From contig OY760505.1 in NCBI GenBank assembly GCA_963663545.1, positions 1,477,937 through 1,541,936 on the forward strand: a stretch of 64,000 nucleotides of DNA, in the 5' to 3' direction. A program made the translations under genes and the position numbers. How positions within the stretch are numbered: the stretch's first letter is position 1; each line of letters opens with the position of its first letter. Of the stretch, positions 20,732-61,674 are shown piece by piece. The notes below the pieces were generated by a model, which was not told the DNA's origin, did no database searches, and saw only the letters and a list, made by a program, of their open reading frames with translations. Origin of the DNA: Candidatus Delongbacteria bacterium (GTDB lineage: Bacteria > CAIWAD01).

Positions 20732-20763
20732 GTTTGTCTCCAATACTCCGATGTCTTGCTGTT

Positions 20764-21336
20764 TCAACGCACAGGCAGGGGTTTCCAGTCGCTGAAGCTC
20801 ACCATATCGCCGTTGACACTGTTAAACCCTGGCTGGCATTCCCATAGCTGTGAATCAGTGTAATACGTCGCCAATTCTGGATCATCGTTGTTGAATACAC
20901 GGACAATCACATTCTCCCAGACCTGAACCCGGTTATCCGTGGGCACTGTTTTCTCCATGCGAACCGTAGCCAAGATATCAATCAGGCCTGGCATCGAATT
21001 GAGATAGCTCTTGTGCCGTCCCGTGTTGTAGAACTCATTACGTTCTTGGACGACGTCGTCGCCATCTGTGGCAAAAGGCAAATCCACCTCGCCATTCACG
21101 ATAATGAGTTCAAGATAGCGACCCGTCAAGGGAGCACCGGTCTCCGGGTCGTTTAGGTAGATCTCCCCGAACTGGCACAGACCATCAAATCCCGGCGAAG
21201 ATTTTGGTGTGCTGACAGCGACCTCTTCGGCTTGCTCACCAACTTCCGGTGCTTTCGTCTCCTGACAAAAGCAAAAGGACGCCAACGCCAAGCTTGCCAT
21301 GAGGAACGCTGCTGAGAATTTGTTTTGCGGACTCAT
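20764..21336 (-). CDS. Hypothetical secreted protein
   Basis: ORF with a signal peptide (MSPQNKFSAAFLMASLALASF); its stop lies 4 nt from the start of the downstream gene. Confidence 0.5.
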   Translation of the reverse strand: MSPQNKFSAAFLMASLALASFCFCQETKAPEVGEQAEEVAVSTPKSSPGFDGLCQFGEIYLNDPETGAPLTGRYLELIIVNGEVDLPFATDGDDVVQERNEFYNTGRHKSYLNSMPGLIDILATVRMEKTVPTDNRVQVWENVIVRVFNNDDPELATYYTDSQLWECQPGFNSVNGDMVSFSDWKPLPVR

Positions 21337-21583: not shown

Positions 21584-22276
21584 TTACTTGATCAGAGCCA
21601 TCTTCTTGGTAGCAGTGAAGCCCTCGGCCTCGATGCTGTACAGATACATGCCGCTGGAAAGAGCGGAGGCATCAAAGGTAACCTGGTGCGCGCCGCGCTC
21701 CATGTTGCCATTCACCAGTGTCGCCACTTCCTGACCGGCCAGGTTGTAGACCTTCAAAGTGGTCATACCAGCATTCTCCAAGGAGAACTCGATGGTCGTG
21801 GTCGGGTTGAAGGGGTTCGGATAGGCGTCGGCCAATGCGAACTCGACGGGCTGCTCAACGACACCGGCGGTACCACCGCACGTTCCCAGGGGCTCGAACA
21901 GCAGGTCGGGACCCACGGGCGGTGTCTCGGGATTATTCGACCAATCATAGGGAACGGGCAGCACATACTCACCTACCAGGGGCTCAGTCGCATCCGGGCA
22001 ATAGGCAGTCAGGGTACCGCTAATGATGCTACCCATGTTATAGGCAGCCTCATGAGACATGTCGAAGCAATAGATGTCAGCAGCGTTGACGAAGGTCAGC
22101 GTGGTGGCAACATCAAAGTCGAACATGCCGAGGACGTTCAGGTGCAGCAGCAGGTCAACGTTCTCGTTCGGAATCTCGTCCGGAATGGCCGAACCGGGGA
22201 CGAACACGCGCGTATCAGCAGCCATCACCATGGTGCTCAGGCTCAGGATAGCAGCAGAAATCAGAAGCTTTTTCAT
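21584..22276 (-). CDS. Small secreted protein with a T9SS type-A C-terminal sorting domain
   Basis: Signal peptide; C-terminal YPNPFNPTTTIEFS...MYLYSIEAEGFTATKKMALIK. Confidence 0.75.
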   Translation of the reverse strand: MKKLLISAAILSLSTMVMAADTRVFVPGSAIPDEIPNENVDLLLHLNVLGMFDFDVATTLTFVNAADIYCFDMSHEAAYNMGSIISGTLTAYCPDATEPLVGEYVLPVPYDWSNNPETPPVGPDLLFEPLGTCGGTAGVVEQPVEFALADAYPNPFNPTTTIEFSLENAGMTTLKVYNLAGQEVATLVNGNMERGAHQVTFDASALSSGMYLYSIEAEGFTATKKMALIK

Positions 22277-24392: not shown

Positions 24393-26621
24393 TCAAAACT
24401 CCACATCAATGAACAAGGGCCGAATTCTGCATCCCGTGGTATCAAGCACAGCCGGGTCGAAGTTCACGCGTACCGTATCAGCAAGTTCACTGCGACCATC
24501 GTCCCGGTTACAAAACCCCCATGTGAAAAGCAGCATCAGATCGTGCAGCAGATCAAGGTCCTCCTGGGGCATGCCCACACCCTCTGGATTCAGATAAACA
24601 TCCATCAGCCCACCATCGGGGGCGAGGATCACCCGGGCATCAAGATGCTGGTCGCCCGGGTTGCCCACGGCCAATCCGTATTCCTTGATCAAGAGGGCGA
24701 TATCGGGCAAGGCTTCCACGTAGCTACTGCCTTCAGGAATCTGCAACGCGAGCAGTGTTTCTACGAAATACTCCGGCCCAAGGTGCTCCTTGCGCGCTTT
24801 CTGCTTCCCCTTTTGGTCAAAGCGAAGATGCTGCACCAACAAATAGCAATAGCCAGCCGGTAAGGAAGCGTCCCCACTGAGATCCTGCTCAAGCTTCTCC
24901 ACAATAGATAAAGCATGTCGCCCGAATTCGTATTCTTCAGGCGACTCCCACAGAGTTTCGCCGTGACTGATATGCCCGTCGGCATGGAGGCGGTACGACA
25001 CAATTGTCTCACCCTCCCAGTGGAAGCGACGCGCGCGCATGGGGAAGGACATTCGCTTCAACAGAGTTTTCACATCCGAAATCAATCCTGGTCTGGGAGC
25101 CTGGGCGAGCAAAGTATCGAGGCCGCCGCCAAGCTCGGATTCACCCAAATACCACTTGCGGCCCTGGGTCTGCTCAGGCGTGAAACTCAAACGTTGAAGG
25201 ATGCGCGATGGGACAATGTGCTCCTCCACGAAGCCCGGCGTGAAGCTCATTCCGTGAATCACTTCAAGAGCGTTGGATTCAAGCCCCATGCTCTGCGGAA
25301 TGACCGAGAGCACCGTTGCCTCCTCAAATCCACCGCGCGGATCAAGATCTACCGCCACTACGGCCTGACCGGACACACCGAGGCTCTTGCCGCGGAAAAA
25401 GCTTCCGATCAATTGTCGCATGCGCGTCGCCGACTCGGAGCTCCGCGGAGGCGTGTCAATGACGCTATACAAGTACCGTGGCCCCTTGTCTACCAGCGAA
25501 TCAGCGTAAACGGCAAGCGTGTCCAGTTCTTCGGCGTCCGCCAGCAGTACCAACTCGGCCTCGGAAGCGATAGGCGCATCCACACCAAACAAATCATGCT
25601 CCAGGCGCCAAGGAAGCTCCACCTCTCCCGGCACCCAGGCCGCCAGTAGTCCCCATGATCCCGCCATTACAACCTGATTACCGCGCTTAATGGCCGAGGT
25701 TAAAGACGTATAGCGATCCAGACGAACAACCGGAGCCTCCTGCTCAAGGCCACCTGCCTCGGAAAGCCAGCAAACACGACCAGCACTTCCACCCAGGAGC
25801 CAACCCGACTCTCCCGGTGTATCACAGGGAATCACAAAATGGCCATCGCCCCATGGCGATTTCGCCACCGGACGCCAGTGATCCGCTTCCCACATTTCTA
25901 TTTCGCCATCGCTTGTCAAGAGACAGACACGTCCATTGTCAATGGCAAGGTCTTCAATCGGAGTGCGATTCTTACGCAGCAGCACTTGCCACTCGGATCC
26001 CTGGTTGTGTGACACAAATACAAATCCACCGCTTCCCGCGATGTAACACGTATCGCCCGTGATTGCGGCACAGTGATACCGCATGGGAAGGGGGGCTTCA
26101 AGGAGCTCCCAACTCGCACCGTGGTCAACGCTGCGAGCCAGCAACCCTTCTCCGCCGCATAGCAACCCGTAGGATTCCCCGAAGACGAGATCCTCAATGG
26201 AGGACGGACGCCCTACCTGGAGCTGTACCAAGCTATCTGCCTGAACACGGAATACATACCCGGAGTCACTTCCACACAAGATGCGCTTGTTGGTGAGGGC
26301 GATGCAGTTCATCGGCAAAGCCCATTTACTCCGAATCTTGTGCCAGCTTGTATCACAATCAGACCACGCTACCAGGCCTGAATCTCCACAGGCCCAGAGC
26401 CGCGGGCTATCCAAGACCAGTCCATTAATCTGCAGTCCACCCACCGGCGGCAGTACATTGTCCAAGGTGATTGGCGGAAGCTCAACAACCATGCTATCGG
26501 CAGCTGTACTGTCTGACGGGCTTGGTGCATCCTCGCCAGGATCCGACCAACAGGGAAGTGTCACTGCAACCACAAGAACGAGCAGCAACCAACCGTGTAT
26601 TCGATTTGTGATTTTGTGCAT
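24393..26621 (-). CDS. Large secreted BNR/Asp-box (Ycf48-like beta-propeller) repeat protein
   Basis: Signal peptide and SxDxGxxW-like motifs (SVDHGASWE, SHNQGSEWQ); 742 aa. Confidence 0.55.
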   Translation of the reverse strand: MHKITNRIHGWLLLVLVVAVTLPCWSDPGEDAPSPSDSTAADSMVVELPPITLDNVLPPVGGLQINGLVLDSPRLWACGDSGLVAWSDCDTSWHKIRSKWALPMNCIALTNKRILCGSDSGYVFRVQADSLVQLQVGRPSSIEDLVFGESYGLLCGGEGLLARSVDHGASWELLEAPLPMRYHCAAITGDTCYIAGSGGFVFVSHNQGSEWQVLLRKNRTPIEDLAIDNGRVCLLTSDGEIEMWEADHWRPVAKSPWGDGHFVIPCDTPGESGWLLGGSAGRVCWLSEAGGLEQEAPVVRLDRYTSLTSAIKRGNQVVMAGSWGLLAAWVPGEVELPWRLEHDLFGVDAPIASEAELVLLADAEELDTLAVYADSLVDKGPRYLYSVIDTPPRSSESATRMRQLIGSFFRGKSLGVSGQAVVAVDLDPRGGFEEATVLSVIPQSMGLESNALEVIHGMSFTPGFVEEHIVPSRILQRLSFTPEQTQGRKWYLGESELGGGLDTLLAQAPRPGLISDVKTLLKRMSFPMRARRFHWEGETIVSYRLHADGHISHGETLWESPEEYEFGRHALSIVEKLEQDLSGDASLPAGYCYLLVQHLRFDQKGKQKARKEHLGPEYFVETLLALQIPEGSSYVEALPDIALLIKEYGLAVGNPGDQHLDARVILAPDGGLMDVYLNPEGVGMPQEDLDLLHDLMLLFTWGFCNRDDGRSELADTVRVNFDPAVLDTTGCRIRPLFIDVEF

Positions 26622-47847: not shown

Positions 47848-48523
47848 TTCAGCACTCTCGCAAGCACCTGTCTTCTTCACCGACTTTGACGGGACAATAA
47901 CGAACCGTGATACGCTGGTCGCTCTGCTGGATCACTACGCCGACCCCAAAAGATGTGGCTGTGACTGGCGCGATATCGAGTTCGACCCCACCCGCCCCGA
48001 AGTCGACAAGTTGCAGGCCGAACTCGATCTGCTCAACTGCTCGCTTCCAGAAGCACTGGCCTTCATTGACAAAGAGATCCGTCTGCGCTCCGGTTTCCTG
48101 AGCTGCGCGCGCCGTTTGGCGGAACAGAAGATCCCGCTGATCGTGCTTTCCGGCGGACTGCTGCCCCTGATTCATCACGTTCTGGACCCGCTTGAACTGG
48201 ACAACCTGCAGATCTTCGCCAACGATCTGCGAATCGATAACGGTCGATGGTTGGCCACGCGGCCCGATCTGCCTCGCAGCGGCAAGAGCTGCAATCACTG
48301 CAAGAGCTGGCACTTGCGCCAACTTACAGGACAGAGCCGCTTGCGCATCTACGCTGGCGACGGAAGTACGGACTTCTGCGCTGCCGGTCTTGCCGATGTG
48401 GTTTTCGCTCGTGATACACTGGCTACTCATTTTCACCGCACGGAGAGGCGCTACCAACGCTTCCGTGACTGGCACGATGTGACACAATATCTCGTGAGTC
48501 ACGAGATTCTTGCCTCTGACTGA
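47840..48523 (+). CDS. HAD-superfamily phosphatase, MtnX-like (2-hydroxy-3-keto-5-methylthiopentenyl-1-phosphate phosphatase family)
   Basis: Motif I FTDFDGTIT and motif IV YAGDGSTDFCAAGLADVVFARD; block similarity to MtnX. The start is probably TTG 47840. Confidence 0.6.
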   Translation: MIDSALSQAPVFFTDFDGTITNRDTLVALLDHYADPKRCGCDWRDIEFDPTRPEVDKLQAELDLLNCSLPEALAFIDKEIRLRSGFLSCARRLAEQKIPLIVLSGGLLPLIHHVLDPLELDNLQIFANDLRIDNGRWLATRPDLPRSGKSCNHCKSWHLRQLTGQSRLRIYAGDGSTDFCAAGLADVVFARDTLATHFHRTERRYQRFRDWHDVTQYLVSHEILASD

Positions 48524-48539
48524 TTTCCCCGGAGATTCA

Positions 48540-49676
48540 ATGCGTTTCAACACAACCGCCATTCATGCAGGCCAGCAGCCGGACCCCCACCACGGCGCGG
48601 TTTGCGTTCCTGTAATACAAAGCACGACGTTTGCCCAGCACGCTCCAGGAAAGCCCTTTGGCGACTATGACTACACTCGCGCTGGCAACCCGACGCGAAC
48701 CGCGTTGGAAACCAATCTGGCGGCGCTTGAGGGCGGAAGTCACTGTCGCGTGTTCTCTTCTGGCTTGTCGGCGCTCCAAGCCTTGACCACCCTTCTCAGC
48801 CAGGGCGATCACGCCATCTGCAGTCGCGACTGCTATGGCGGCACATGGCGGCTGCTGAGTCAGCTTGTATCACGCTGGGGAGTGGAGATCAGTTTTATCG
48901 ACACGACCCTTTTGGATTCTGTGATACAGGCCATCAGACCTACCACGAAATTGATCTTCGTCGAGACTCCCACTAATCCGCTGATGCGCCTATCGGATAT
49001 TGCCGCGCTGGCGGATTTGGCTCACGCGCACAACTTGCTGCTGGCAGTGGACAACACCTTCTCCACGCCCTACTTCCAGAGACCCCTGGAGCTTGGTGCG
49101 GACATTGTGTTACACTCCTGCACCAAGTACCTGGGCGGCCACAGCGATCTGCTGGCGGGCGCGCTGATCACGTCCTCGGCAAAACTGGATGAGGCCTTCT
49201 TCTTTGCGCAAAAGAGCATCGGTGCCGTTCCCGGGCCCTCCGATTGTGCACTGCTTCTTCGTTCCACCAAGACCCTGGGCGTGCGAATGGAACGTCACTA
49301 CGACAACGCCCTGCGCATCGCTCACTGGCTGCAGGAGCATGATGCCGTGACACACGTCTACTATCCCGGCCTGCCTGAGCATCCGCAGTTTGAGTTGGCT
49401 CACCGCCAGATGCGAGGCTTCGGAGGCATGCTTTCCTGCGAGCTGCGTGATACAGATACCGCCCTGCGTTTCTGCTCTTCGCTGCACTTGTTCACCCTGG
49501 CTGAAAGCCTTGGCGGAGTGGAGAGCCTGGTGAATCACCCCACCACCATGACTCATGCTTCGTTGCCACCCGCCTATCGCGCCGAGATTGGTCTGGGCGA
49601 CAACCTGGTGCGCTTGTCGGTGGGCATTGAAGATTTGGAGGATCTGTTGGAAGATCTTGCTGCTGCGCTTCAGTAG
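48540..49676 (+). CDS. Cys/Met-metabolism PLP enzyme (cystathionine gamma-lyase/gamma-synthase family)
   Basis: TKYLGGHSDLLAGAL PLP-Lys motif; about 380 aa. Confidence 0.75.
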   Translation: MRFNTTAIHAGQQPDPHHGAVCVPVIQSTTFAQHAPGKPFGDYDYTRAGNPTRTALETNLAALEGGSHCRVFSSGLSALQALTTLLSQGDHAICSRDCYGGTWRLLSQLVSRWGVEISFIDTTLLDSVIQAIRPTTKLIFVETPTNPLMRLSDIAALADLAHAHNLLLAVDNTFSTPYFQRPLELGADIVLHSCTKYLGGHSDLLAGALITSSAKLDEAFFFAQKSIGAVPGPSDCALLLRSTKTLGVRMERHYDNALRIAHWLQEHDAVTHVYYPGLPEHPQFELAHRQMRGFGGMLSCELRDTDTALRFCSSLHLFTLAESLGGVESLVNHPTTMTHASLPPAYRAEIGLGDNLVRLSVGIEDLEDLLEDLAAALQ

Positions 49677-49748
49677 CAGTTGTGATACAGACCGCGAAGG
49701 CCTGCGTTTGGTAAGTTGCCGCGGTTGATTCATTCCAAGGGAGACCAC

Positions 49749-50504
49749 ATGAGCGAGAATACCTGGAGTACCAAAATCACCAAGACCGGCGCGGGCGAAC
49801 TGCGCGTGCGCGGCTACGACATTACACAGATGATCGGCAAACTGAGTTTTGCCCAGATCGTATTCCTCATTCTTAAGGGCGAGCTGCCCACGGAAGCGGA
49901 GGCACGCATGATCGAAGGTATGCTGGTCAGCAGTATCGATCACGGCATCACACCGCCTTCCAACCTGGCGGCACGCACGGTAATGAGCGGTGGAAACAGC
50001 CTGAACACGGCTGTAGCAGCAGGCATCATGACCATTGGCGACAGCCACGGCGGCGCCATCGAGCAGTGCGCGCGCATACTGCAAGCAGCCGTCAGCGCCG
50101 GCAAGGATGCGCCTACTGTCGTTGAGGAAGCCAAGGCAGCCAAGCTGCGCATTCCCGGCTTCGGCCATCGCATTCACGCCCGCGATCCACGCACCGAGGC
50201 GCTCTTCGCGCTGGCGGACGAGTGTGGCTTCACCGGCCCGCACATCAAGCTGGCTCGCGGTATCATGGAAGAACTGGAGCGCGGCACGGACAAAAAGCTG
50301 CCCGTCAACGTCGACGGTGCCATTGCCGCCATCATCAGCGAGATGGGCTTCGATTGGCGCCTGGGCAAGGGCTTCTTCATCATCGCCCGTACGCCCGGCC
50401 TGGTGGCTCACGTCTTCGAGGAATGGACGACCCAGAAGCCGATGCGCAAGCTGGGTCCTCTTGGCGGTGTCTACGATGGAGCGCCGGATCGGGATCTGCC
50501 CTAG
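49749..50504 (+). CDS. Citrate synthase-like / citryl-CoA lyase family protein
   Basis: Citrate-synthase signature GFGHRIHARDPR; only about 250 aa, similar in size to the CCL domain. Confidence 0.5.
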   Translation: MSENTWSTKITKTGAGELRVRGYDITQMIGKLSFAQIVFLILKGELPTEAEARMIEGMLVSSIDHGITPPSNLAARTVMSGGNSLNTAVAAGIMTIGDSHGGAIEQCARILQAAVSAGKDAPTVVEEAKAAKLRIPGFGHRIHARDPRTEALFALADECGFTGPHIKLARGIMEELERGTDKKLPVNVDGAIAAIISEMGFDWRLGKGFFIIARTPGLVAHVFEEWTTQKPMRKLGPLGGVYDGAPDRDLP

Positions 50505-50609: not shown

Positions 50610-51578
50610 TCAGCGTTCTGCGATGCCGATGTGTATGGCTCTGGAATCAATTAATGTGTGATACATCTCCGCCATGTCCAATGGCAGAAAGCTTTGATCG
50701 ATCCGATCGTGCCAGCGTGATACACAGCGGGCGAATCGTGAGAACAGGTTCTCGATAGCTCGCGCATCCAGCGTCACACCTTTCATCGCCTGCTCAAAGT
50801 CTGAACGCCGCAATTTGCGTCTCTTCCCATTCAGCGTGAGCGCCAACTCCTCTTTATCCCCCTCGACAACAAGCGTGGAGGCGATCAGATCATAGGCAGG
50901 GCTTAGAGCATATCCGCGATCCGGGTCCTTGAACAGCGAGAAATTCTTCATGTGCATGTCGTTGTTCCCAGTGAGGTAGCTGAACACAACCTGCTCATAG
51001 AAGACAATCGCGTCGAAGCCGGGATTAGTGGAGTTCTGCACAATGGCTCGGGCAATCTGTTCGTAGGAACCGCGGTACTTGGCCTCAGTAAGTCGACCGG
51101 TCAGCTGGCACATATCCTCCATGTGATACATCCGTTTGCCTTCCCGATCAATCCGCCTTGTCAGGTAACACAGCTCACCGGAGGCCAGGCGAATCAGCGT
51201 ATGCGGCACTGTGCTTATTCCCGCGTCCTCAGCCAGATGCATGCTGAGGTCTTCCAACTCAGGAAGACTGCGATAGACCAAGCTGGGCGGCTTGAGAATA
51301 TAGCCACCCAGAACACCTACCAGAGTAAGCTTCTGATGTTGCGTCTTTGTATCACCAGACCCCATTCCCAGTGAGAGCTTGGCCTGAACACCGGGAATGG
51401 TGACTTGAGTTTGTATCACCTGAGTGGCAAGCTCGTGCATCTGATCAAGTGAGTATTCCAGAACGGGCTGCACCTTCTTGCCAAAGAACGCCCTGCTGCA
51501 TTTCGAATGGAAGTCGGTTTCGGTGACGTCCAAGTCCTGGTAACAGAACAAGCATTTCTTGTTACTCATCATCGCCAC
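50610..51578 (-). CDS. hipT: HipT-like kinase toxin (HipA C-terminal kinase domain) of a tripartite HipBST module
   Basis: HipA catalytic-loop-like NNDMHMKNFSLF, and SPAYDL; 322 aa lacking the HipA N-subdomain. Confidence 0.75.
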   Translation of the reverse strand: MAMMSNKKCLFCYQDLDVTETDFHSKCSRAFFGKKVQPVLEYSLDQMHELATQVIQTQVTIPGVQAKLSLGMGSGDTKTQHQKLTLVGVLGGYILKPPSLVYRSLPELEDLSMHLAEDAGISTVPHTLIRLASGELCYLTRRIDREGKRMYHMEDMCQLTGRLTEAKYRGSYEQIARAIVQNSTNPGFDAIVFYEQVVFSYLTGNNDMHMKNFSLFKDPDRGYALSPAYDLIASTLVVEGDKEELALTLNGKRRKLRRSDFEQAMKGVTLDARAIENLFSRFARCVSRWHDRIDQSFLPLDMAEMYHTLIDSRAIHIGIAER

Positions 51579-51894
51579 CTGGCATCGCTTCGATACTCAC
51601 GGCGCCAATGCAGTCCCGGCAAGTCACCAGCAGAAGTCCCATGCGATCACGCACATCCAGCTTCCAGTTTCGCTCAGCGATATCCAGCAGCCAGCCTTCG
51701 GGAATCAATCCATCGAAGAAGGAAAAGAGCACATTGCTGTGATACACTTCTTCCTGCAAGGGAAGTGTCAAGCTGACTGCCTCGGCCCTGGGTGTAGCTA
51801 AATACTCACTCGCATATTTGAAGTGGTAACCATTTTCATCCTCTACCAGCTCACCCGCTGGCAGACCGTGCATGAGTACTCTAGCGTTTCTCAT
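51562..51894 (-). CDS. hipS: HipS-like protein (stand-alone HipA N-terminal subdomain)
   Basis: 110 aa resembling the HipA N-terminal (couple_hipA) domain. It overlaps hipT by 17 nt. Confidence 0.65.
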   Translation of the reverse strand: MRNARVLMHGLPAGELVEDENGYHFKYASEYLATPRAEAVSLTLPLQEEVYHSNVLFSFFDGLIPEGWLLDIAERNWKLDVRDRMGLLLVTCRDCIGAVSIEAMPGGDDE

Positions 51895-52105
51895 TGATCA
51901 GCTCATCTCTATCCACCGGCACCTGCCCAAGTTTGTGCCCAAACAGCAAAAGCACCTGGTTCACCTTATCCATCCGCAATGTGGCCTTCTCGCTCTCCAA
52001 CTCGCGAAGAAATCGCAGACCAACACCTGCCTTGTCGGCCAAGCCCGGTTGTGTCAGGCCAAGCTCTTTGCGTCGTTCACGAACAAAACTGCCAAGTGAT
52101 TGCAT
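51881..52105 (-). CDS. hipB: HipB-like XRE-family HTH regulator
   Basis: 74 aa with HTH motif LGLTQPGLADKAGVGLRFLRELE. It overlaps hipS by 14 nt. Confidence 0.7.
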   Translation of the reverse strand: MQSLGSFVRERRKELGLTQPGLADKAGVGLRFLRELESEKATLRMDKVNQVLLLFGHKLGQVPVDRDELINEKR

Positions 52106-52114
52106 ACTGATAAT

Positions 52115-52234
52115 CCCCTTTCGGGTACGAATCTAGGGAATTACGACGAATTATACCTGCTCGGGTACGAAGTCACGACATATTGTAAGATATATCCCTA
52201 TCGGGTACAATTTCTAGTTCGCTCGGGCTGTTCT
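52115..52234. promoter_or_regulatory. Putative hipBST operator/promoter: three direct repeats yCnnTCGGGTACrAntc spaced exactly 40 bp apart, plus a fourth degenerate copy
   Basis: TCGGGTACGA at 52121 and 52161 and TCGGGTACAA at 52201, immediately upstream of the hipB start (52105). Confidence 0.5.
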
Positions 52235-52407
52235 GCGCCACAAGATCGGAAGGTCATTGCGGCTCAGTCTTTCGGGAGCTCGCATAGGTGCGTTGCAAAG
52301 TCTGTAGCTGGTTCGTTTTGATCCCGTTGAGTTCGCATAGGAAAGCACTACGCCGACGATCCCAGCTCCGAGATTCGGTTATAAATCTCTGAATAACAAC
52401 AGGTACC

Positions 52408-52675
52408 TACTTCAACACCATCGCCCTCGTCACTGCCTGCGAGTTCGCGCCGCGCAAGCTGAAGATGTAGTGCCCGCTTGCAAGACCCGATCCATCGAAG
52501 CTATAGTGATGTATGCCTGCCGGCTGATAGCCCAGGTGGCTTCGTCGCAGCTCCTGACCAAGTAGATTGTACACCGATAGCGATACATGCTGGGCCGACG
52601 CGAGCGCGTAGCTGAGAGTGGTGGACGGATTGAAGGGGTTCGGATAGACGCTGTGCAGTATAATGCCCGACGGAT
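52408..52675 (-). pseudogene. Orphan fragment of a T9SS cargo gene (C-terminal sorting domain only)
   Basis: Reverse-strand translation HPSGIILHSVYPNPFNPSTTLSYALASAQHVSLSVYNLLGQELRRSHLGYQPAGIHHYSFDGSGLASGHYIFSLRGANSQAVTRAMVLK*; it is preceded in frame by TAG and by AT/CA-rich non-coding DNA. Confidence 0.65.
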
Positions 52676-53434
52676 GCTAAGCAGTATTGTCTGATCTCCG
52701 GCTTAGCACTACTTCGGGCTACGAAATCCATCAACAACCCAACACACAGACTTAAGGCCAATATAAACAACGAAGTTCACCAAACAACAACCACCAATAA
52801 CAAAGCTAACAGAAAACAACGACGGCCACTTCAGCAGTCAATACCCCACTCCCGATTGTCGATCACGGAGTTCAGACTCGAAAGATTGTGGCGACTGTGA
52901 ATGATATAACTCATCGGATCCTTCTATTTGCAGCGTCCAATACACGAACGGTGAATATGAGCAATACGGTGTAGAGGAAACCTTGTAAAAAACGAATGAG
53001 GCTGACACGAGAATCTATAAAGCAGAAAACACTACAGCGATTCGCTGCAATCCGTTCAGTTCTCTATTGACCCACATTACGTCCTCCCATAAATGAGCTG
53101 TTTGATTGTTCGGTCCAAGGGATTGTGTTCCATAGTGATGATATTTCAGCACTTAAAAATACTACTCTGCAAAATCTGGGCAGATATCTGCTAACCCACC
53201 AATTGAATCATGCTAGCAATCACTGCGAGCTTGGCGAGATGTACTCTTGCTCTTCGCTTCTTTGGCGACCTGCGTGGCCAATGCTATGCGCTGAGTCAAG
53301 CAGACCTTTGCCGGTCTTGCGCATTCTTCTCATCCTCCTCGTCCAGAGGAGCAGCTCTTGAGCGGATCGGCGTTTCTCCGATACCGATACCGATCCAACT
53401 CGCAGAGTCGGCAGCGATACCGATCAAGGTAGGA

Positions 53435-54190: not shown

Positions 54191-54598
54191 ATGCTACGCG
54201 GGTCAGTTTTGGCAGCACTCCTGCTACTGTGTGTCACAGTTTGCCAGGCTTTTACTGTGTCACACATCAGACTCAACCATGAACTTCAGGCCATCGCCAT
54301 CGACAGTCTAGTCCAGCGTCTGGACCACAACCCCGTGCTACACTGCCATTGTCTGCGCGTTCAGCAAGAGCTGGAATTGCGTCACGAGCGCGGCGACTAT
54401 CGCGAGCTGATGGATCCCGTGCTGTTTGCACAGCGCATTGGCAAAGACGTGACACATCTGCTGATGAGTCGTCCCGTGCTGGATCAGCCCCTGCTGCTCT
54501 TCCGCCAGGAATTCATGCGCTATCAGCAACGGGAGCGGCATCCCGATCCCAGGGAGCTGGAATCCATCCTGGTGTTCGAGACACCACCGGAATCCTGA
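54191..54598 (+). CDS. Hypothetical small secreted protein
   Basis: Signal peptide MLRGSVLAALLLLCVTVCQA; 135 aa; followed by a terminator. Confidence 0.45.
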   Translation: MLRGSVLAALLLLCVTVCQAFTVSHIRLNHELQAIAIDSLVQRLDHNPVLHCHCLRVQQELELRHERGDYRELMDPVLFAQRIGKDVTHLLMSRPVLDQPLLLFRQEFMRYQQRERHPDPRELESILVFETPPES

Positions 54599-54625: not shown

Positions 54626-54656
54626 AAAAAACCCGCCGGAAGGCGGGTTTCATTTT
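54626..54656. terminator. Bidirectional rho-independent terminator
   Basis: AAAAAA-CCCGCC-ggaa-GGCGGG-TTTCATTTT between convergent genes. Confidence 0.8.
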
Positions 54657-54673
54657 GTATCACAATCAATCGA

Positions 54674-55804
54674 TCAATGCAGTCGATAGCGCAGTGCGAG
54701 CCCCCAGCGTAGCACATAAAAATCCTTCAGCTCCGCCAGGCCCTCGTAGGGGCCTTCTGTAACACGCCACTCACGTTCAATCATGGGAGTCACGCTTAGC
54801 TGATCCAACACGTCCCAGCGCGCCGAAAAGGCCAGCAGGTAACGGCGATCGTGACGACCAGAATGAAGGGGATCATCCAGCTCCGTCATCTCGCTCTGAT
54901 ACCAGCGGTCGCGCAGTGTGAAATCCAGACCCAGCGGCAGCTCGCGCTTCCACCAGGATAGTGGCAGGTCGTAGCCAAGCGACAAGTTGTAGCGATCTTC
55001 TTCGTTGCTGCCATCACCGCCCTCGTCGTCCTCGCCGGGAAGAATGGGCGTGATACGCGTTGGATCGTAACCCACGTTGTCATTCACCGTATAGCGGTAC
55101 TCCACGGCCACATCCACGTCGGCCGGCATGCGCCAGGAGAATTCAGCGCCCAGCGACCAACTCTCGGTGTCGTACTCGGTGAACCACTCGTTGTACCAGG
55201 TGTCCTCCAGCATCCAGCTCAGCTCCAGTCCGGGACGCTGCAGCCAGGGGCCGAAGTCGTTAGCACGGGCACGGGCGCGAAGGCGGAACTGGTTGCTATC
55301 GAAAGTACAACCGCGTGTCTCGCCTGTATCACGGTCGTTGAACTGCCGCAGATAGAAATTGTCCAGATAGAGATAGCTGAAATCGACGCCCCAACCTGCA
55401 CGCGGACGCCATCCTGCTATCAGCTGACTGCTACTGTAGCCGTTGGCCGAGCTGGACTCGTACTGCACGAGCTTGCCGTACCAGTCGAATTCCAGGCGGC
55501 CGCGGCCCGCACGGGAACCGGTGACCTTCTGCAACCAGGCGGCCAGGCCCTCTTTCGAGTGCAACGGCAGGTTGTAGCCAGCGTGCACGCGGTGCTCGAA
55601 CTTGAGCGCGGCGGCGCCTTCCACGTCCGTCTGAAATCCGGGATCCGCATCCAGGCGATCCATCTCGCTGTCGGACAGACGCAGGACGTTGTCGTCGGCC
55701 AGTACCCGCTCCTCCAGATCCAGCGACCAGTCAATTCCGGCGGCCGTGAGTCGGGAAGCTAACAGGCTGAGGCACAGAAGCGGCAGCATCCTCTGCATGG
55801 GCAT
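54674..55804 (-). CDS. Putative outer-membrane beta-barrel protein (last gene of the PGA operon)
   Basis: Signal peptide, alternating aromatic/hydrophilic beta-strand pattern, C-terminal LRWGLALRYRLH. Confidence 0.45.
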   Translation of the reverse strand: MPMQRMLPLLCLSLLASRLTAAGIDWSLDLEERVLADDNVLRLSDSEMDRLDADPGFQTDVEGAAALKFEHRVHAGYNLPLHSKEGLAAWLQKVTGSRAGRGRLEFDWYGKLVQYESSSANGYSSSQLIAGWRPRAGWGVDFSYLYLDNFYLRQFNDRDTGETRGCTFDSNQFRLRARARANDFGPWLQRPGLELSWMLEDTWYNEWFTEYDTESWSLGAEFSWRMPADVDVAVEYRYTVNDNVGYDPTRITPILPGEDDEGGDGSNEEDRYNLSLGYDLPLSWWKRELPLGLDFTLRDRWYQSEMTELDDPLHSGRHDRRYLLAFSARWDVLDQLSVTPMIEREWRVTEGPYEGLAELKDFYVLRWGLALRYRLH

Positions 55805-56754
55805 CACTCGCTGTTTTTGAGACTGCTCCGCGGAATCAGACAACGCATGTTGACTTCACGTCCGCTGTCCTTGAACTGCAGCGTGTACTCGTGGCGTCCC
55901 TCGGGCACTTCGATGTAGAAGACGTCGCCCTTGCCGGGCACGCTGTCCCGTTTCTCGTCATATTCGGCCACATCGCTGCGCTGGCTCTCGAGCACGTAGG
56001 TGTTCTTCAGCTTGCCGTCTTCAAAGGCCTTGATCATGTAGCGCTGACGGCCACTCATGGTGGTGTTCCAGTCGAGACGGGCAATGACCTTCATGAAGGT
56101 CGGGCCGATCACGTTCACCTTGATGTCTTCGCCGGTGCGCAGCGCGTAATACGGAACGCTTGACTCGTGAACGACCACATTGCGAATGCCTTTGTGGATA
56201 TGCGGCACGATGTCAATGTTCTGACCACGCGGAATCGGGTTGACGTACTGTTTGCGCATGCGCAGATAGACGGTCTCGGCGGCGCCTTCGCCCAGTTCGA
56301 TGCGAACACGATGAGTTCCGGGACCAATTTTGATCACGTCGTCGCGGCTGACCGAAAGCTTGGCGCCTTCGCCCTGCAGGCGCGCCGTGCGCGAACGCGC
56401 GATGCTGTGCCGCAGTGTCTTGGCGTTTTCGCCATCCACCGTGTAAGTGAAGCTGTAGCGCTTGCCCTTTACCCGGCGCTCATAGGGAACGCGGCTGTAG
56501 ATTTTGATTTCCGCCGGGCCATTCAGTTCGAACTCGGCGGCGTGGGAAGCGTCCAGCTCATAGTAGCTGCGCACTTTGCCTTCCACCTCGACCTTCTGGC
56601 GACGGCTGTTCTGCGGGCGTAGGCTGGTCCAGGCCGCCAGCGCTTCTCCCGCCATCAACACCACGACCAGAGTCGCGACGAAAGCGGGGAGCAGGCGGCC
56701 AAAGCTTCGTGAGGTGGGATCAGAACTCGTTCTCTGCTTCATGGGAGAATCCAT
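55804..56754 (-). CDS. Hypothetical periplasmic or membrane-anchored protein
   Basis: 316 aa with an N-terminal TM/signal; tightly packed within the operon. Confidence 0.45.
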   Translation of the reverse strand: MDSPMKQRTSSDPTSRSFGRLLPAFVATLVVVLMAGEALAAWTSLRPQNSRRQKVEVEGKVRSYYELDASHAAEFELNGPAEIKIYSRVPYERRVKGKRYSFTYTVDGENAKTLRHSIARSRTARLQGEGAKLSVSRDDVIKIGPGTHRVRIELGEGAAETVYLRMRKQYVNPIPRGQNIDIVPHIHKGIRNVVVHESSVPYYALRTGEDIKVNVIGPTFMKVIARLDWNTTMSGRQRYMIKAFEDGKLKNTYVLESQRSDVAEYDEKRDSVPGKGDVFYIEVPEGRHEYTLQFKDSGREVNMRCLIPRSSLKNSE

Positions 56755-56762
56755 TCCTTAAC

Positions 56763-57905
56763 TCAAATCATGTCGTCGGGATCGGCATTCGCTTCGCGCA
56801 GCTGTTGCAGCCGCAGATCAAAACGAATGACCACCAGTACAAGCACCGTCATGATCAGCACGGCAACGAGCACAACACGCAGATCGTAACGCTCTGTGAC
56901 GAAAGTTGCACCATCGCCGGGCTCGGGAACCGCATTGAAGCGCAGGGGCAGACCATTGTCCTGCAGCAGCTTCTCAAAAAGGTGATTGCGGTACTTCAAG
57001 TTGATTACCGGCACGTTGTGGCGACTGAAGTAATGAATCACGCCCTCACGGGGATAATTCATCGGCTGAACGTGCTTGATGACACCCAGCGGAAGCAGCT
57101 GCCCATTCTCCACATGCCCCAAGCTGGCAACACCGCCGCCAATATTGAGGAAGGTGCCATAGCCGGCGGGCGAACCCTTGAGCTGCTCGGTGAACAAGTC
57201 AACGCGAATGCGAATGGCATCATCGACCGAAGGCGGGTTCAGATAGGGCACATCATTGCGCTCAACGGCCTGGCGCAAGAGCGCGCGGCCTTCGGGCGGC
57301 AGACTGCGACCGCGATCGTCCGCACCTCCGGCGCTGGCGGCGATGCTCTTGTAGTCGAAGAGCCCCGACTCACGCAGCGCGGCTTCCATGTCAAGCCAGG
57401 TGAAGAGCGGATCGGTGGCCCCGTACCAGGAGGAGCTGACCGAGGTAATGATCACCGGATCGATGCCCATTATCTTGCAGGCCGAGAATGCCGCCAGGTT
57501 CAGCGCGGGAAAGGAACCCGACACGCACATGGCCAACTTGTCGCCTCGCTCCAGGCCTGCATCGTAGAAGAGGTCGACCATCATCGCCGCTGTGTTGGGA
57601 TTGACCGTCATCAGCTTAGCAGCATGGTTGCCCTCGAGGGTGGTGATCAGCGTGTTCTTCTGGCCCACAAGCATAGTGGCGAAGGGATCGTTGATCTCGT
57701 CGGCAATGGCGGCTTCGGGCGCGGAACTCTCGCGCAGCACGTCCATGCCCTGCAGCATCAATTCCGCAGCCGCCAACTTCTCATCATAATGCGGCTGACG
57801 GGCGTCAACGCGACTGTACTCGGCCCAATTGTAGAGGCCGTACGCAACAATGGCCAGGACCAGCAAGGTCCAGTTGGACTTCAGACTAGGCTTAAACATG
57901 GGCAA
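56763..57905 (-). CDS. Poly-gamma-glutamate system protein (PgsA-substitute family, TIGR04332-like)
   Basis: 380 aa with N- and C-terminal TM segments; immediately downstream of pgsB and pgsC and overlapping them. Confidence 0.5.
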   Translation of the reverse strand: MPMFKPSLKSNWTLLVLAIVAYGLYNWAEYSRVDARQPHYDEKLAAAELMLQGMDVLRESSAPEAAIADEINDPFATMLVGQKNTLITTLEGNHAAKLMTVNPNTAAMMVDLFYDAGLERGDKLAMCVSGSFPALNLAAFSACKIMGIDPVIITSVSSSWYGATDPLFTWLDMEAALRESGLFDYKSIAASAGGADDRGRSLPPEGRALLRQAVERNDVPYLNPPSVDDAIRIRVDLFTEQLKGSPAGYGTFLNIGGGVASLGHVENGQLLPLGVIKHVQPMNYPREGVIHYFSRHNVPVINLKYRNHLFEKLLQDNGLPLRFNAVPEPGDGATFVTERYDLRVVLVAVLIMTVLVLVVIRFDLRLQQLREANADPDDMI

Positions 57906-58347
57906 TCAACTCCCCGCCGGTGACGAGCATCATCAGCAAGCGAACGCAAGAGGCCACCAGCAACAGGCACATCAGGGTTTTGAAGACGCCCTGCTTGTCC
58001 ATCCAGTTGGCAATTAGGCCGGGGATAATGAATCCAACAGCCTGAAACTGCAGATCAACGCCAAAGGTGTCGTAGAAAATCGCCTGACGCGAAAAGTAAC
58101 CCATTACAAATCCCAGCAGAATGCAGAGGATCAGGCGGCGGCGTCCGTAGATAAACATGAAGGAGCTCAGACCGCGCACGATACCGAAAGTGATAAAGCT
58201 GACCAGGAAGGTTCCCAGCAGGCGCGTGGGCTCATGCATCTGCAGGGCCACATAGCCGGGGACCACGAGTCCGCCCGCGCTGACACCCACAACCTCCTGG
58301 AACACCATACTCAGGATGACTCCCAGGCCCACAGAGATCTCAATCAC
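57892..58347 (-). CDS. pgsC: Poly-gamma-glutamate biosynthesis protein PgsC/CapC
   Basis: 151 aa integral membrane protein; CapC-like sequence (MIEISVGLGVILS...GFIIPGLIANW). Confidence 0.75.
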   Translation of the reverse strand: MIEISVGLGVILSMVFQEVVGVSAGGLVVPGYVALQMHEPTRLLGTFLVSFITFGIVRGLSSFMFIYGRRRLILCILLGFVMGYFSRQAIFYDTFGVDLQFQAVGFIIPGLIANWMDKQGVFKTLMCLLLVASCVRLLMMLVTGGELIAHV

Positions 58348-59510
58348 GAACGGCTCCTTTCCTGGAAGTAATGTGCAACTTCATGTCCGCCTCCGTGGAC
58401 GTTGCCGATGCCGTAGACGCCCATCTTGTGGAAGGGCAGCTGGGCAATAGTGTTGTAGACGACTTCGGGATAGACCAGACCGAGGCCGATGACCTTATCC
58501 GGCTTCATCCCCAGTTTCCAGCAGTAGGTCAGCAGGCGATCGGTACTTTCTCCGATGAGCACCAGCCGCTCGTACTGCGTATTCTCGTGCACCATTTCTA
58601 CTAGCTGCAGACTGCGCTCGTAGCGATCCTGCCGCGTGTTGAGCATAAAGATGGTCGCACCCGGATTTTCCTCGTGGGCGATCACGCGTTCCCAGATGGC
58701 CAGCGTGCTCTCCGGGTCGTTTGCCGCCAGCGCATTGACGAATACCAGTTCCTTGCCCTCGTGATTCACGCGATGCAGCTGCAGAGCGCCGCAATCAGGC
58801 CGCGCCTTCAACATGCCACGCAGCGCCGTATCACGATCGATACCAAGCTCGGCGGCAACGGCCATGGCCAGGGCGACATTCTCCTTGTGCTCGATGTAAC
58901 CGAACTGGCGCATGTCCTCGTCGGTCACGACCGCATCGGTCACTTCGTGCAGCATGGTGCCACGCTTGCCGGCGACTTTCTGCATCAGCCCGATCAGCTT
59001 GTGCTCGCAGGTGTAAGCCACCTTGTTGCTGGGCAGGCTGTTGCACAAACTGCGTGCGACATTCTGCACCGTCGGCCCCATTTCGCGCAGGTGGTCGGGA
59101 CGCGCATTCGTAATGACGCCGATGGTCGAATGCACCATGCGATGCTCAGCAACCCACTGATACTCCGGCATTACCGCCATGCACTCAATCACCATTGCCT
59201 GCGGTTTGCGCTTTGCCGCGAAGGCAAACACACGCACCTGTTCAATGATGTTGGCGCCGCGCGCGCGATAGATGGGAATCTCTCGCCCGTCTTCCAGAAG
59301 CACCCGAGGAGCGCTACCGGTGGTTTTGGCGATGGTTCGGATTCCACCCTCGCACAATGCGCCGTGGATCAATCGCGTTACACTTGATTTCCCGCGGGTG
59401 CCATTGACGTGAATGCGATGAGGAATCGAGTGGATGACCGAGTAATGTCGGCGTAGTTCGTAGATGCCCAGCAGGATGAGCGCCAGGACAAGACAAACGA
59501 TGATCAGCAT
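58344..59510 (-). CDS. pgsB: Poly-gamma-glutamate synthase PgsB/CapB (Mur ligase family)
   Basis: N-terminal TM, ATP-binding motif HVNGTRGKSSVTRLI, 388 aa. Confidence 0.8.
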   Translation of the reverse strand: MLIIVCLVLALILLGIYELRRHYSVIHSIPHRIHVNGTRGKSSVTRLIHGALCEGGIRTIAKTTGSAPRVLLEDGREIPIYRARGANIIEQVRVFAFAAKRKPQAMVIECMAVMPEYQWVAEHRMVHSTIGVITNARPDHLREMGPTVQNVARSLCNSLPSNKVAYTCEHKLIGLMQKVAGKRGTMLHEVTDAVVTDEDMRQFGYIEHKENVALAMAVAAELGIDRDTALRGMLKARPDCGALQLHRVNHEGKELVFVNALAANDPESTLAIWERVIAHEENPGATIFMLNTRQDRYERSLQLVEMVHENTQYERLVLIGESTDRLLTYCWKLGMKPDKVIGLGLVYPEVVYNTIAQLPFHKMGVYGIGNVHGGGHEVAHYFQERSRS

Positions 59511-59856
59511 AGTTGGTTGGACGATATCCCGTCGAACCCCTGCGGGTGCAGAAGGTCGACATTCACATTTCTTTTGACACCGCTACCGAAGGTTGGCGAT
59601 GTAGTTTTCAATAGACAAGCAGCCGCTTCGCTTCTCATGCGAAAAACGAAAGCCGTTTTAATGCAGAAATTGCGCCAGAACACGAATTGCATCCTCGCCT
59701 TCGTCAAAGCTTCTATTCAAGCCCATCTCGGCCCATTGCGGCCTGGAAAAGGCAATTCGGACTGTCTGAAGAAACTCTCACAACTGATAAATCCCGCACA
59801 CTGCGTATAGCGCGCTTTTCACACCGCACAGCGGGTGGGGTTCAACTCGCGAAGAG

Positions 59857-60576
59857 CTAATCCTCCAGGAAGTACTCAACGGTGTTCACGACGCGCACGA
59901 CCTTCAGCTCGGGGCTATTACGATCGCGCTCGTCTATGGAGAAAAGGCCCTGGCTTGCACGGCGGATGCGCCCGACCTCGGATCCCGAATCGTGGGCGAA
60001 CTGCTCGGCGGCGTCGCGTGCGTTCAGCGTTGCCTGGGCAATCATCTCAGGCTTGATGGCATTCAGGCCAGTAAAAAGGAACTCGGTAGGGTTCTCCCAA
60101 GACTGGTTGGTCAGTGCGATCCCTTGCCCCACAAGACTCGGCGTCTGCTCCATCGCCTGGCGCACCAGGTCCACTTTTTGTGTACGCGTTGTCACAACAC
60201 CCTGGGCGCGATAGCGGAACTGGGGTGCATTATCTCGTGAGCCGTAGAACTCGGCGCGCGTATCCTGAATCTGCGGCGAGGGCATGCTGATGTCGGCGCG
60301 TTCGAAGCCCATTTTCGTGAGGAATCCCACAATCAGTTCGCGTTGATGGTCGATTTCTCGCTGCAAGCTTTGTAGGTCGTTATCTGTGACGACAAAGCTG
60401 ATGGGCCAGATGGCCAGATCGGCTTGCACTTCGCGCTCCGCCAGCCCTTTGACGGTCACGAAGCGATCTCCGCTGCGACTTGCCTTGAAGCCCTGCCCCA
60501 CCAACAATCCTGCTAGCGCGATTCCGACCGCGACAAGCAGAGCGGGCACGATCAGGGAACGATGCTCAGATAGCAT
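59857..60576 (-). CDS. SIMPL-domain (DUF541/YggE-like) protein
   Basis: Single N-terminal TM followed by a SIMPL-like domain; the start is at the internal Met (MLSEHRSL). Confidence 0.55.
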   Translation of the reverse strand: MLSEHRSLIVPALLVAVGIALAGLLVGQGFKASRSGDRFVTVKGLAEREVQADLAIWPISFVVTDNDLQSLQREIDHQRELIVGFLTKMGFERADISMPSPQIQDTRAEFYGSRDNAPQFRYRAQGVVTTRTQKVDLVRQAMEQTPSLVGQGIALTNQSWENPTEFLFTGLNAIKPEMIAQATLNARDAAEQFAHDSGSEVGRIRRASQGLFSIDERDRNSPELKVVRVVNTVEYFLED

Positions 60577-60699
60577 GATATCCTCCGTTTCGGCATGCAA
60601 AACACCCGCACACAATGTAGCAAGAGCGTAGCGGCACAAGGACCCCGGACTACGGCCTTGCCGTGGCAATTGTACCTTACGGCAAACACGGGAGGAAGC

Positions 60700-61674
60700 A
60701 TGAGCACAGAGCGCGGACGCGTGCTGGTTACCGGAGCGAGTGGTTTCATTGGCTCGCATCTGGCCGAAAGCCTTCTAGCAAGCGGAAAAGAGGTTCGCCT
60801 CTTTTTGCGCTACAGCTCCCTTCCCGTGGAACAGCTTCTTCCTGAAGCCTTGCGGGCCTGCGAGGCAGTGCGCGGCGATATTCGCGATAGCGCAGCGCTA
60901 CTCCGGGCGATGGAGGGCATGGACACCGTGTATCACCTGGCAGCACTCGTGGGTATCCCATACAGCTACGAATGTCCGGCGGAGGTATTCTCGGTCAATG
61001 CTGCTGGAACTGCGGCTGTCCTGGATGCCGCGCTGAAGTGCGATGTGTCACGCCTTGTACTGACTTCCACCAGCGAAGTCTACGGCAGTGCTCAAACAGT
61101 GCCCATTCGCGAAGATCATCCGCTTAACGCGCAATCTCCCTACGCCGCAAGCAAGGTGGCCGCCGACCAGTTGGGGCTTTCCTACCATCGCAGCTTCGGG
61201 CTTCCCGTAGCCATACTGCGCCCCTTCAACACCTACGGACCGAGACAGAGTGCACGCGCTGTGATACCGACCGTGATACAACAGGCGTTGACCGGCAAGG
61301 AAATTCTGCTTGGTACGACAAGCAGTACGCGCGATTTTAGCTACGTGCAGGATACGGTGGATGCATTTATTGCAGCAGGTTCAAGTCCCGAAGCCGTAGG
61401 CTGTATCACGCAGACGGGAAGCGGCCGCGAAGTCAGCATCGGTGATTTGGTACAGATGGTAGGGCGAATTCTAGCGCGCGATCTAATGATTGTGTCACGC
61501 GATGAGCGACTTCGTCCACAGGCCAGCGAAGTGCAACGCCTCATCTGCGATGCTACGCTCGCAAAAGAGCGTCTTGGCTGGAGCAGCAGGGTCAGCCTGG
61601 AAGAAGGTCTGGCACGAACCATTGACTGGCTGCGTGATCATCCACAGCATCTGGGCAAGGGCTATCAACGGTAA
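60700..61674 (+). CDS. NAD-dependent epimerase/dehydratase (extended SDR family)
   Basis: VLVTGASGFIGSHL Rossmann motif and YAASK catalytic motif. GGAGGA RBS upstream of ATG 60700. Confidence 0.8.
   Translation: MSTERGRVLVTGASGFIGSHLAESLLASGKEVRLFLRYSSLPVEQLLPEALRACEAVRGDIRDSAALLRAMEGMDTVYHLAALVGIPYSYECPAEVFSVNAAGTAAVLDAALKCDVSRLVLTSTSEVYGSAQTVPIREDHPLNAQSPYAASKVAADQLGLSYHRSFGLPVAILRPFNTYGPRQSARAVIPTVIQQALTGKEILLGTTSSTRDFSYVQDTVDAFIAAGSSPEAVGCITQTGSGREVSIGDLVQMVGRILARDLMIVSRDERLRPQASEVQRLICDATLAKERLGWSSRVSLEEGLARTIDWLRDHPQHLGKGYQR

Follow-up and report, generated by a model that had tools for sequence, protein, structure and literature searches.

In a contig of Candidatus Delongbacteria bacterium (OY760505.1, assembly GCA_963663545.1), five closely packed minus-strand open reading frames (ORFs) occupy positions 54674-59510 of the 64,000-nucleotide stretch that we analysed (hereafter the window; all positions refer to it). 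In order of transcription they are pgsB, pgsC, a gene of the TIGR04332 family, a gene for a periplasmic protein that we call P316, and a gene for an outer-membrane protein (OMP). We propose, from sequence and predicted structures, that the five genes form one envelope-spanning export route for poly-gamma-glutamate (PGA), and we put the probability of this reading at about 0.6. A known synthase would then be joined to a new export module consisting of two undescribed families, and P316 and OMP would probably be the missing PGA export route of double-membraned bacteria.

The first two genes belong to the PGA synthase core, since they are adjacent and both of their products score above the cut-offs of equivalog models. 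pgsB (58344-59510) encodes a Mur-ligase-like amide ligase of 388 amino acids (aa) with an N-terminal membrane anchor. It matches TIGR04012 with an E-value of 3.5e-128 and 427.6 bits (cut-off 222.7), it has a match of 27 bits to Mur_ligase_M, and it contains the P-loop GTRGKSS. pgsC (57892-58347) codes for the small integral-membrane subunit of the synthase, with 130.8 bits against TIGR04011 (cut-off 96.45) and an E-value of 4e-34 against PF14102. We did not find PgsA or CapA after pgsC; the product of the third gene (56763-57905) has no Pfam match, and matches instead the model for TIGR04332, 'poly-gamma-glutamate system protein', with 271 bits (cut-off 100). The two distal genes are P316 (55804-56754) and OMP (54674-55804). 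These ORF positions agree with a first-pass annotation of the same DNA, which had listed five minus-strand genes including a pgsB with GTRGKSS, pgsC, and a protein substituting for PgsA.

Spacing within the block is very tight. pgsB and pgsC overlap by 4 nucleotides (nt). The overlap between pgsC and the TIGR04332 gene is 14 nt if the latter begins at a TTG, or 8 nt if it begins at the ATG implied by a database sequence of 378 aa (P0037). P316 and OMP meet in a TGATG stop-start junction with an overlap of 1 nt at position 55804. The overlaps of 4, 14 and about 1 nt given in the first-pass annotation are thus borne out. The TIGR04332 gene and P316 do not overlap; an 8-nt gap lies between them. 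The same annotation had described the last protein as a 389-aa barrel. That length belongs to an ORF extended upstream to a TTG at 55843; the TGATG junction and an identical database protein of 374 aa (P0001) make ATG 55804 or ATG 55798 the most likely start, giving a protein of 376 or 374 aa, respectively.

The block is conserved beyond the closest relatives of the window. In a scan seeded with OMP (one genome per species, 20 loci), the order pgsB-pgsC-TIGR04332-P316-OMP was found at 18 of the 20 loci; one of the remaining two ends within P316 at the end of its contig, and the other (L005) is a lone OMP gene. The 18 loci include bins labelled Zixibacteria, Krumholzibacteriota, Gemmatimonadota, Fibrobacterota (Fibrobacteraceae) and Cloacimonadota, which makes at least five phyla. 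Sequence identity is as low as 23-29% for OMP in the OMP-seeded loci, and PgsB identity to the window protein drops to 37-50% in the more distant ones. When genomes were searched with TIGR04332 instead, all five genes were present in an Acidobacteriota locus and in a marine TMED46 locus, and a 7.8-Mb genome had the first three genes only, without P316 and OMP. For metagenomes we used iterated profiles and took the best 80 of at least 512 TIGR04332 matches. P316 lies directly downstream of TIGR04332 in 66 of the 69 loci in which this could be assessed, and OMP is present in 46 of 53. Of the seven loci that were scored as lacking OMP, two (L079 and L082, which are identical copies) carry a divergent barrel-like ORF of 374 aa in the OMP slot. 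After clustering of the TIGR04332 proteins at 55% identity, 19 of 26 clusters include a locus with both P316 and OMP. The synteny of the distal genes with pgsBC, which the first-pass annotation had suggested as a check, is therefore kept from both search directions. TIGR04332 itself adjoins pgsC in nearly all of the fetched loci that have both genes, with a gap or an intervening ORF at L034, L035 and L102. At L023:6160-9146, L078, L101 and L102, pgsB-pgsC-TIGR04332 stands alone, and the last three of these have in common a distinct PgsC N-terminus (MLWLSVG...).

The limits of the conserved unit coincide with the five genes. The 103 fetched loci, closest relatives included, contain no homolog of the window genes that flank the block, and a set of upstream neighbours (epimerase, ACPS, PGI) is common to the closest relatives only; hence we take the five-gene block as the conserved unit. 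An upstream SIMPL gene and two small downstream ORFs were considered as further operon members and were rejected, having no homolog in any related locus.

Gene fusions are the strongest argument that the TIGR04332 protein, P316 and OMP make up a single trans-periplasmic assembly. TIGR04332 and P316 are a single ORF in 13 loci, mostly of Krumholzibacteriota type (669-688 aa in 12 of them, the other being truncated where its contig stops). Among the TIGR04332 homologs listed from the database there are two longer ones, of 541 and 659 aa, which on length alone are consistent with a fusion to P316. By hydropathy, the fusion protein has a first transmembrane (TM) segment, a periplasmic domain, a second TM segment, a short basic loop, a third TM segment, and then the jelly-roll domains of P316. 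The third TM segment is the former signal segment of P316, with its Ala-x-Ala retained. Because this topology puts the jelly-rolls after the third TM segment, they are predicted to be periplasmic. Fusions also occur at the other end of the proposed assembly: one or two P316-type domains precede the barrel in 18 loci, where the fused OMPs are 488-632 aa long, and at L021 the barrel is preceded by a full tandem copy. Since one type of domain is joined either to the inner-membrane part or to the barrel, depending on the lineage, we infer that the three are parts of a single physical assembly.

The TIGR04332 product is an inner-membrane protein with a large periplasmic domain. The first-pass annotation had given it two TM segments. 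Hydropathy clearly supports the C-terminal one (residues 342-360), and the N-terminal one is weaker in the window protein and clear in its relatives. Neither a Pfam scan nor a profile search of solved structures gave a match for this protein.

P316 is a secreted or periplasmic protein of 312-316 aa. In its AlphaFold2 model (predicted local distance difference test, pLDDT, 86.5), an N-terminal hydrophobic helix is followed by two beta-sandwich domains of the jelly-roll type. The two halves align to each other with 97% probability (hhalign, E = 8e-11), and judging by this alignment they are an ancient duplication. A Foldseek search with the model placed tandem CBM22 modules (carbohydrate-binding modules, CBMs) at the top, and BcsB, the periplasmic subunit of cellulose synthase, was also matched (E-values 8e-6 to 2e-4); with TM-scores of only about 0.2, these matches are a lead and not a classification. 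The mature protein has a net charge of +12 in the window and is net basic in 12 of 12 family members. Its hydrophobic N-terminal segment, which had been read as a signal anchor, closes with a conserved Ala-x-Ala followed by Ala-Trp, and so it may instead be a cleavable signal peptide. The window P316 matches no family in Pfam or NCBIfam and had no match in the profile search of solved structures. Three of the 12 family members weakly match DUF1918, the best with an E-value of 3.8e-4. The family is rare, with 12 matches among 5.8 billion clustered proteins.

The prediction that the fifth protein is a beta-barrel is upheld by its AlphaFold2 model, which was made from a 20-sequence family alignment and has a pLDDT of 85.2 and a predicted TM-score (pTM) of 0.80. 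A signal peptide is followed by 14 long antiparallel amphipathic strands, in each of which hydrophobic or aromatic residues alternate with polar ones. The solved structures nearest to the model, ranked first by Foldseek, are two monomeric channels with 14 strands, CymA and OmpG (E-values 7e-9 to 1e-8); the polysaccharide secretin PgaA is the match of rank 22 (E = 3e-7). Pfam and NCBIfam have no family for OMP (PF13505, OMP_b-brl, reaches 27.1 bits, just under its cut-off of 28.7), and the profile search of solved structures returned no match. This family is also small, with 22 matches among 5.8 billion clustered proteins, and 346 representatives among 1.84 billion in a full profile search.

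The mature OMP is acidic overall (39 basic and 63 acidic residues). Its polar residues, which presumably face the lumen, include 24 Lys/Arg and 20 Asp/Glu in the window protein, and across the family the positions of lumen parity comprise 18 conserved basic and 9 conserved acidic ones. Strands 9 and 10 are separated by a conserved acidic loop, GEDDEGGDGSNEEDR (OMP residues approximately 250-265; window 54920-55060). This loop is the sole segment of OMP with a pLDDT below 50, and by strand counting on the model it is extracellular. We speculate that this loop might be a gate or plug of the basic pore, or a cation-binding site.

These observations can be arranged into a route for the polymer. 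From their family assignment, PgsB and PgsC would polymerise glutamate at the inner membrane. The TIGR04332 protein would stand in for PgsA and take the chain on the periplasmic side. P316, to go by its fold, charge and fusions, would bind or guide the polyanion through the periplasm, and in some lineages it would do so as a covalent part of the TIGR04332 protein. The 14-stranded barrel, whose conserved arginines are predicted to face the lumen, would be the pore in the outer membrane. Many relatives carry the P316-type domain a second time, at the N-terminus of the barrel, and jelly-rolls tethered in this way to both membranes could meet and bridge the periplasm. A bolder version of this proposal sees in the locus a secretion machine of a kind not described before, which would span the envelope, carry an anionic polyamide and be made from two unannotated families. 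Duplicated jelly-rolls, tethered to the TIGR04332 protein in the inner membrane and in many lineages also fused to an arginine-lined barrel, would bridge the periplasm in the manner of Lpt; we offer this version tentatively, at a little under even odds.

Several points weigh against an export route of this kind. The window OMP has no fused P316-type domain, and the idea of a bridge derives from relatives. The structural matches are generic, as porins turn up for any barrel, and many CBMs for jelly-rolls at a TM-score of about 0.2. The lumen-facing positions were assigned by strand parity and not from model coordinates, and the charge argument rests on this assignment. The metagenome sample is biased toward relatives of the window. 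Some loci (L023, L078, L101 and L102) carry TIGR04332 but neither P316 nor OMP, and another (L064) has P316 without OMP. Conversely, the full-length OMP homolog at L005:9974-11086 (29% identity) stands alone beside genes for flagellin and an Fe/Mn superoxide dismutase, and the 10 kb upstream of it contain no pgs gene. All of the named loci are in metagenome-assembled genomes, and no cultured carrier is among them. As for the first-pass annotation, its view of the distal genes as PGA export components is supported by linkage, folds and fusions, with the export function itself still a matter of interpretation. Its description of the locus as a candidate complete one may overstate the case, because many relatives add two further conserved genes, absent from the window, so that five genes may not be complete in every lineage.

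Other explanations of the same data have to be considered. P316 and OMP could serve the PGA system without being its conduit, acting as a surface anchor, in length control or as a scaffold, with the polymer leaving the cell in some other way. From linkage and fusions it follows only that the proteins work together; transport does not follow. The anchoring of PGA in Bacillus anthracis requires a separate protein, CapD, which counts in favour of a role other than conduction. The peptidase and lipoprotein genes that flank the block in many relatives (described below) suggest processing at the surface, and the acidic loop of OMP could plug the barrel. On the other hand, the locus has no further conserved outer-membrane component, the clade of the window keeps P316 and OMP even though it lacks the two flanking genes, and the barrel, with its 14 amphipathic strands and conserved basic positions of lumen parity, resembles a channel. 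We regard a non-conduit role as unlikely. We think it quite improbable that the PgsB- and PgsC-like enzymes make a different product, such as another polyamide or a tail of glutamyl residues on some part of the envelope, which the distal genes would handle. PGA production is known for none of these organisms, an uncharacterised family takes the place of PgsA in the operon, and distant PgsB proteins are only 37-50% identical to that of the window. However, PgsB (427.6 bits against 222.7) and PgsC (130.8 against 96.45) lie far over their equivalog cut-offs, and a basic P316 and an arginine-rich lumen suit an anionic polymer.

A role of the distal pair in uptake or recycling, in which a porin and a periplasmic binder return PGA fragments or glutamate to the cell, would account for the resemblance of the barrel to CymA and OmpG, which are uptake channels, and for the jelly-rolls, because CBM-like domains of this kind bind polymers in catabolic systems. 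It is harder to reconcile with the fusion of P316 to the biosynthetic TIGR04332 protein, which points to biosynthesis and export, or with the translational coupling of the distal genes to the synthase genes, and neither a hydrolase nor an importer of the inner membrane was recognised in the five genes or right next to them; we consider it more improbable still. Finally, the adjacency could be due to chance or inherited synteny, with distal genes unrelated to PGA. The closest relatives do have upstream neighbours (epimerase, ACPS and PGI) in common, and there is the lone OMP at L005. Nevertheless, we rejected mere local synteny as the source of the conservation, since the gene order holds across bins of several phyla and the window flanks have no homologs in the fetched loci. 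The linkage is moreover seen from both search directions, two types of fusion tie the components together, and the OMP family is a small one (346 representatives among 1.84 billion proteins), so that this explanation is already largely refuted and only a very slight chance is left to it. Export of PGA by the five gene products is the reading that we carry forward.

Many relatives have additional genes at the locus, and about half of the related loci have an extended operon. A gene for a gingipain-like Peptidase_C25 protein of approximately 1,250 aa is recorded at L006:1564-5379, L010:1720-5478, L022:2813-6400 and 28 other loci. In 25 of 52 assessable loci it immediately precedes pgsB in the same orientation, and a further 3 have it right behind the cluster. 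Those members that were scanned (L006 and L010 with Pfam, L019 with phmmer) bear the C-terminal sorting domain of the type IX secretion system (T9SS); the one at L022 was recorded with a dockerin instead. A role of the peptidase in polymer processing or in surface attachment is conceivable. Just after OMP, 37 loci have a gene for an LVIVD-repeat lipoprotein of approximately 815 aa (for example, L006:10679-13126, L016:10474-12975 and L010:10728-11765). The L006 lipoprotein combines LVIVD repeats with an FGE-sulfatase domain in a Pfam scan, and the L010 version has 345 aa and LVIVD repeats only. In the clade of the window neither gene adjoins the operon, and the 64 kb of the window contain no C25 peptidase gene and no LVIVD lipoprotein.

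The operon ends at a strong, G+C-rich hairpin terminator (54628-54651), 22 nt past the OMP stop codon, with a 10-bp stem that includes 6 G-C pairs, a loop of 4 nt, and a T-run on the minus strand. As had been proposed, it can be read on both strands, and it also ends the convergent plus-strand ORF 54191-54598. The scan found 7 terminator-like sites in total where 6.5 are expected by chance, so we base this call on the position and quality of the hairpin and not on the count. Upstream of pgsB, the 346-nt intergenic region (59511-59856, minus strand) is the presumed promoter region, and a search of it for sigma-70-like promoters found none. Beyond it lies the SIMPL/DUF541 protein gene (59857-60759, same strand), in which a long N-terminal stretch of the ORF is probably untranslated; no related locus has this gene beside the operon. 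No Rfam families or tRNAs were found in the 50-64 kb part of the window.

Further downstream, at about 2.6 kb from the operon, there is a gene for a HipA-like kinase (50610-51578) and one for a HipB-like helix-turn-helix protein (51881-52105). Three direct repeats of 22 nt with 40-nt spacing (52110-52211) lie immediately upstream of hipB and resemble operator sites. At the locus of a relative, genes for a citrate-synthase-like enzyme and for a Cys/Met pyridoxal phosphate enzyme, which are homologous to those at 49716-50504 and 48510-49676 in the window, follow only one gene past the operon. We infer from this that, between the operon and these genes, the window holds approximately 3.5 kb of extra DNA, including the HipA/HipB toxin-antitoxin pair. 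The 1.3 kb at 52100-53400 has no convincing ORF, a lower G+C content (0.49-0.50), and no Rfam or tRNA match; within it, a 55-aa minus-strand ORF (52407-52574) resembles the tail of a T9SS sorting domain, and the region may be a decayed gene. Elsewhere in the window, T9SS C-terminal sorting domains end the proteins encoded at 18578-20767 and 21584-22276, and there is a TonB_C protein at 24393-26621, which together suggest a diderm with type IX secretion, related to the Fibrobacterota-Chlorobiota-Bacteroidota (FCB) group.

PGA, a polymer of capsules and biofilms, is also made industrially, and nearly all studies of its synthesis concern Bacillus, which has a single membrane. The PGA model of CapsuleFinder has CapB and CapC as mandatory components, together with CapA, CapE and CapD, and has no outer-membrane part; the accompanying survey found PGA systems or pgsBC in many diderm phyla (PMC5542703). 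A 2024 review names PgsA alone for removal of the chain and possibly for its transport (PMC10897055). Our search of the full-text literature, in which most subscription journals are outside its reach and whose result is not proof of absence, found no paper on an outer-membrane PGA exporter or on the P316 or OMP families, and no publication on TIGR04332. The locus described here supplies concrete candidate genes for the missing PGA export steps in diderms. The P316 and OMP families could be used to extend capsule-finding models, and the five-gene cassette could be tried for secreted PGA in Gram-negative hosts. If the bolder version of our proposal is true, many uncultured diderm lineages would be coated in polyglutamate or secrete it, because the module spans Zixibacteria, Krumholzibacteriota, Gemmatimonadota, Fibrobacterota, Cloacimonadota, Acidobacteriota and others.

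Compared with the PgsBCA(E)/CapBCADE system of Bacillus, the locus is alike in having PgsB and PgsC at equivalog level, encoded by adjacent and overlapping genes, and in having a third membrane protein with a large extracytoplasmic domain after pgsC. It differs in that PgsA/CapA is replaced by the unrelated TIGR04332 protein, in that CapD and PgdS are absent from the operon, and in its two additional genes, which code for a periplasmic protein and a barrel of the outer membrane and for which single-membraned Bacillus has no counterpart.

In the exopolysaccharide systems BcsA/B/C, PgaABCD and Alg8/44/K/E we see a similar logic, with a polymerase, a periplasmic binder and a dedicated barrel in one operon, and AlgE is reported to have an electropositive pore for its polyanion. 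The likeness is a functional analogy only. The polymer here would be a polyamide made by an ATP-dependent ligase and not the product of a glycosyltransferase; Pfam and NCBIfam scans found no family-2 glycosyltransferase in the operon, whose polymerase is the Mur-ligase-like PgsB, and a Pfam scan of the five genes found no tetratricopeptide repeat (TPR) match that could indicate a TPR scaffold. The barrel has 14 strands as against 16-18, with no sequence homology and TM-scores of 0.2-0.5. The Lpt system (LptC-LptA-LptD) offers a different parallel: in relatives of the window, one type of beta-sandwich is tethered to the inner-membrane component and is also fused N-terminally to the barrel, which suggests a head-to-tail bridge. 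This resemblance is architectural only, since the cargo here would be hydrophilic and anionic and not a lipid, and the three proteins of the window are separate. The structures of LptA, LptC and LptD are absent from the top 50 Foldseek matches of the P316 model. With the glycosyltransferase, TPR scaffold and OstA fold absent or undetected, we do not place the locus in the Bcs/Pga/Alg group or, provisionally, in the Lpt group. The barrel itself is closest to CymA and OmpG, with an equal number of strands and a TM-score of up to 0.6 on the target. Identity to these two sugar importers is 9-13%, with no relation found at the sequence level, and OMP is approximately 60-100 residues longer than they are and has the conserved acidic loop.

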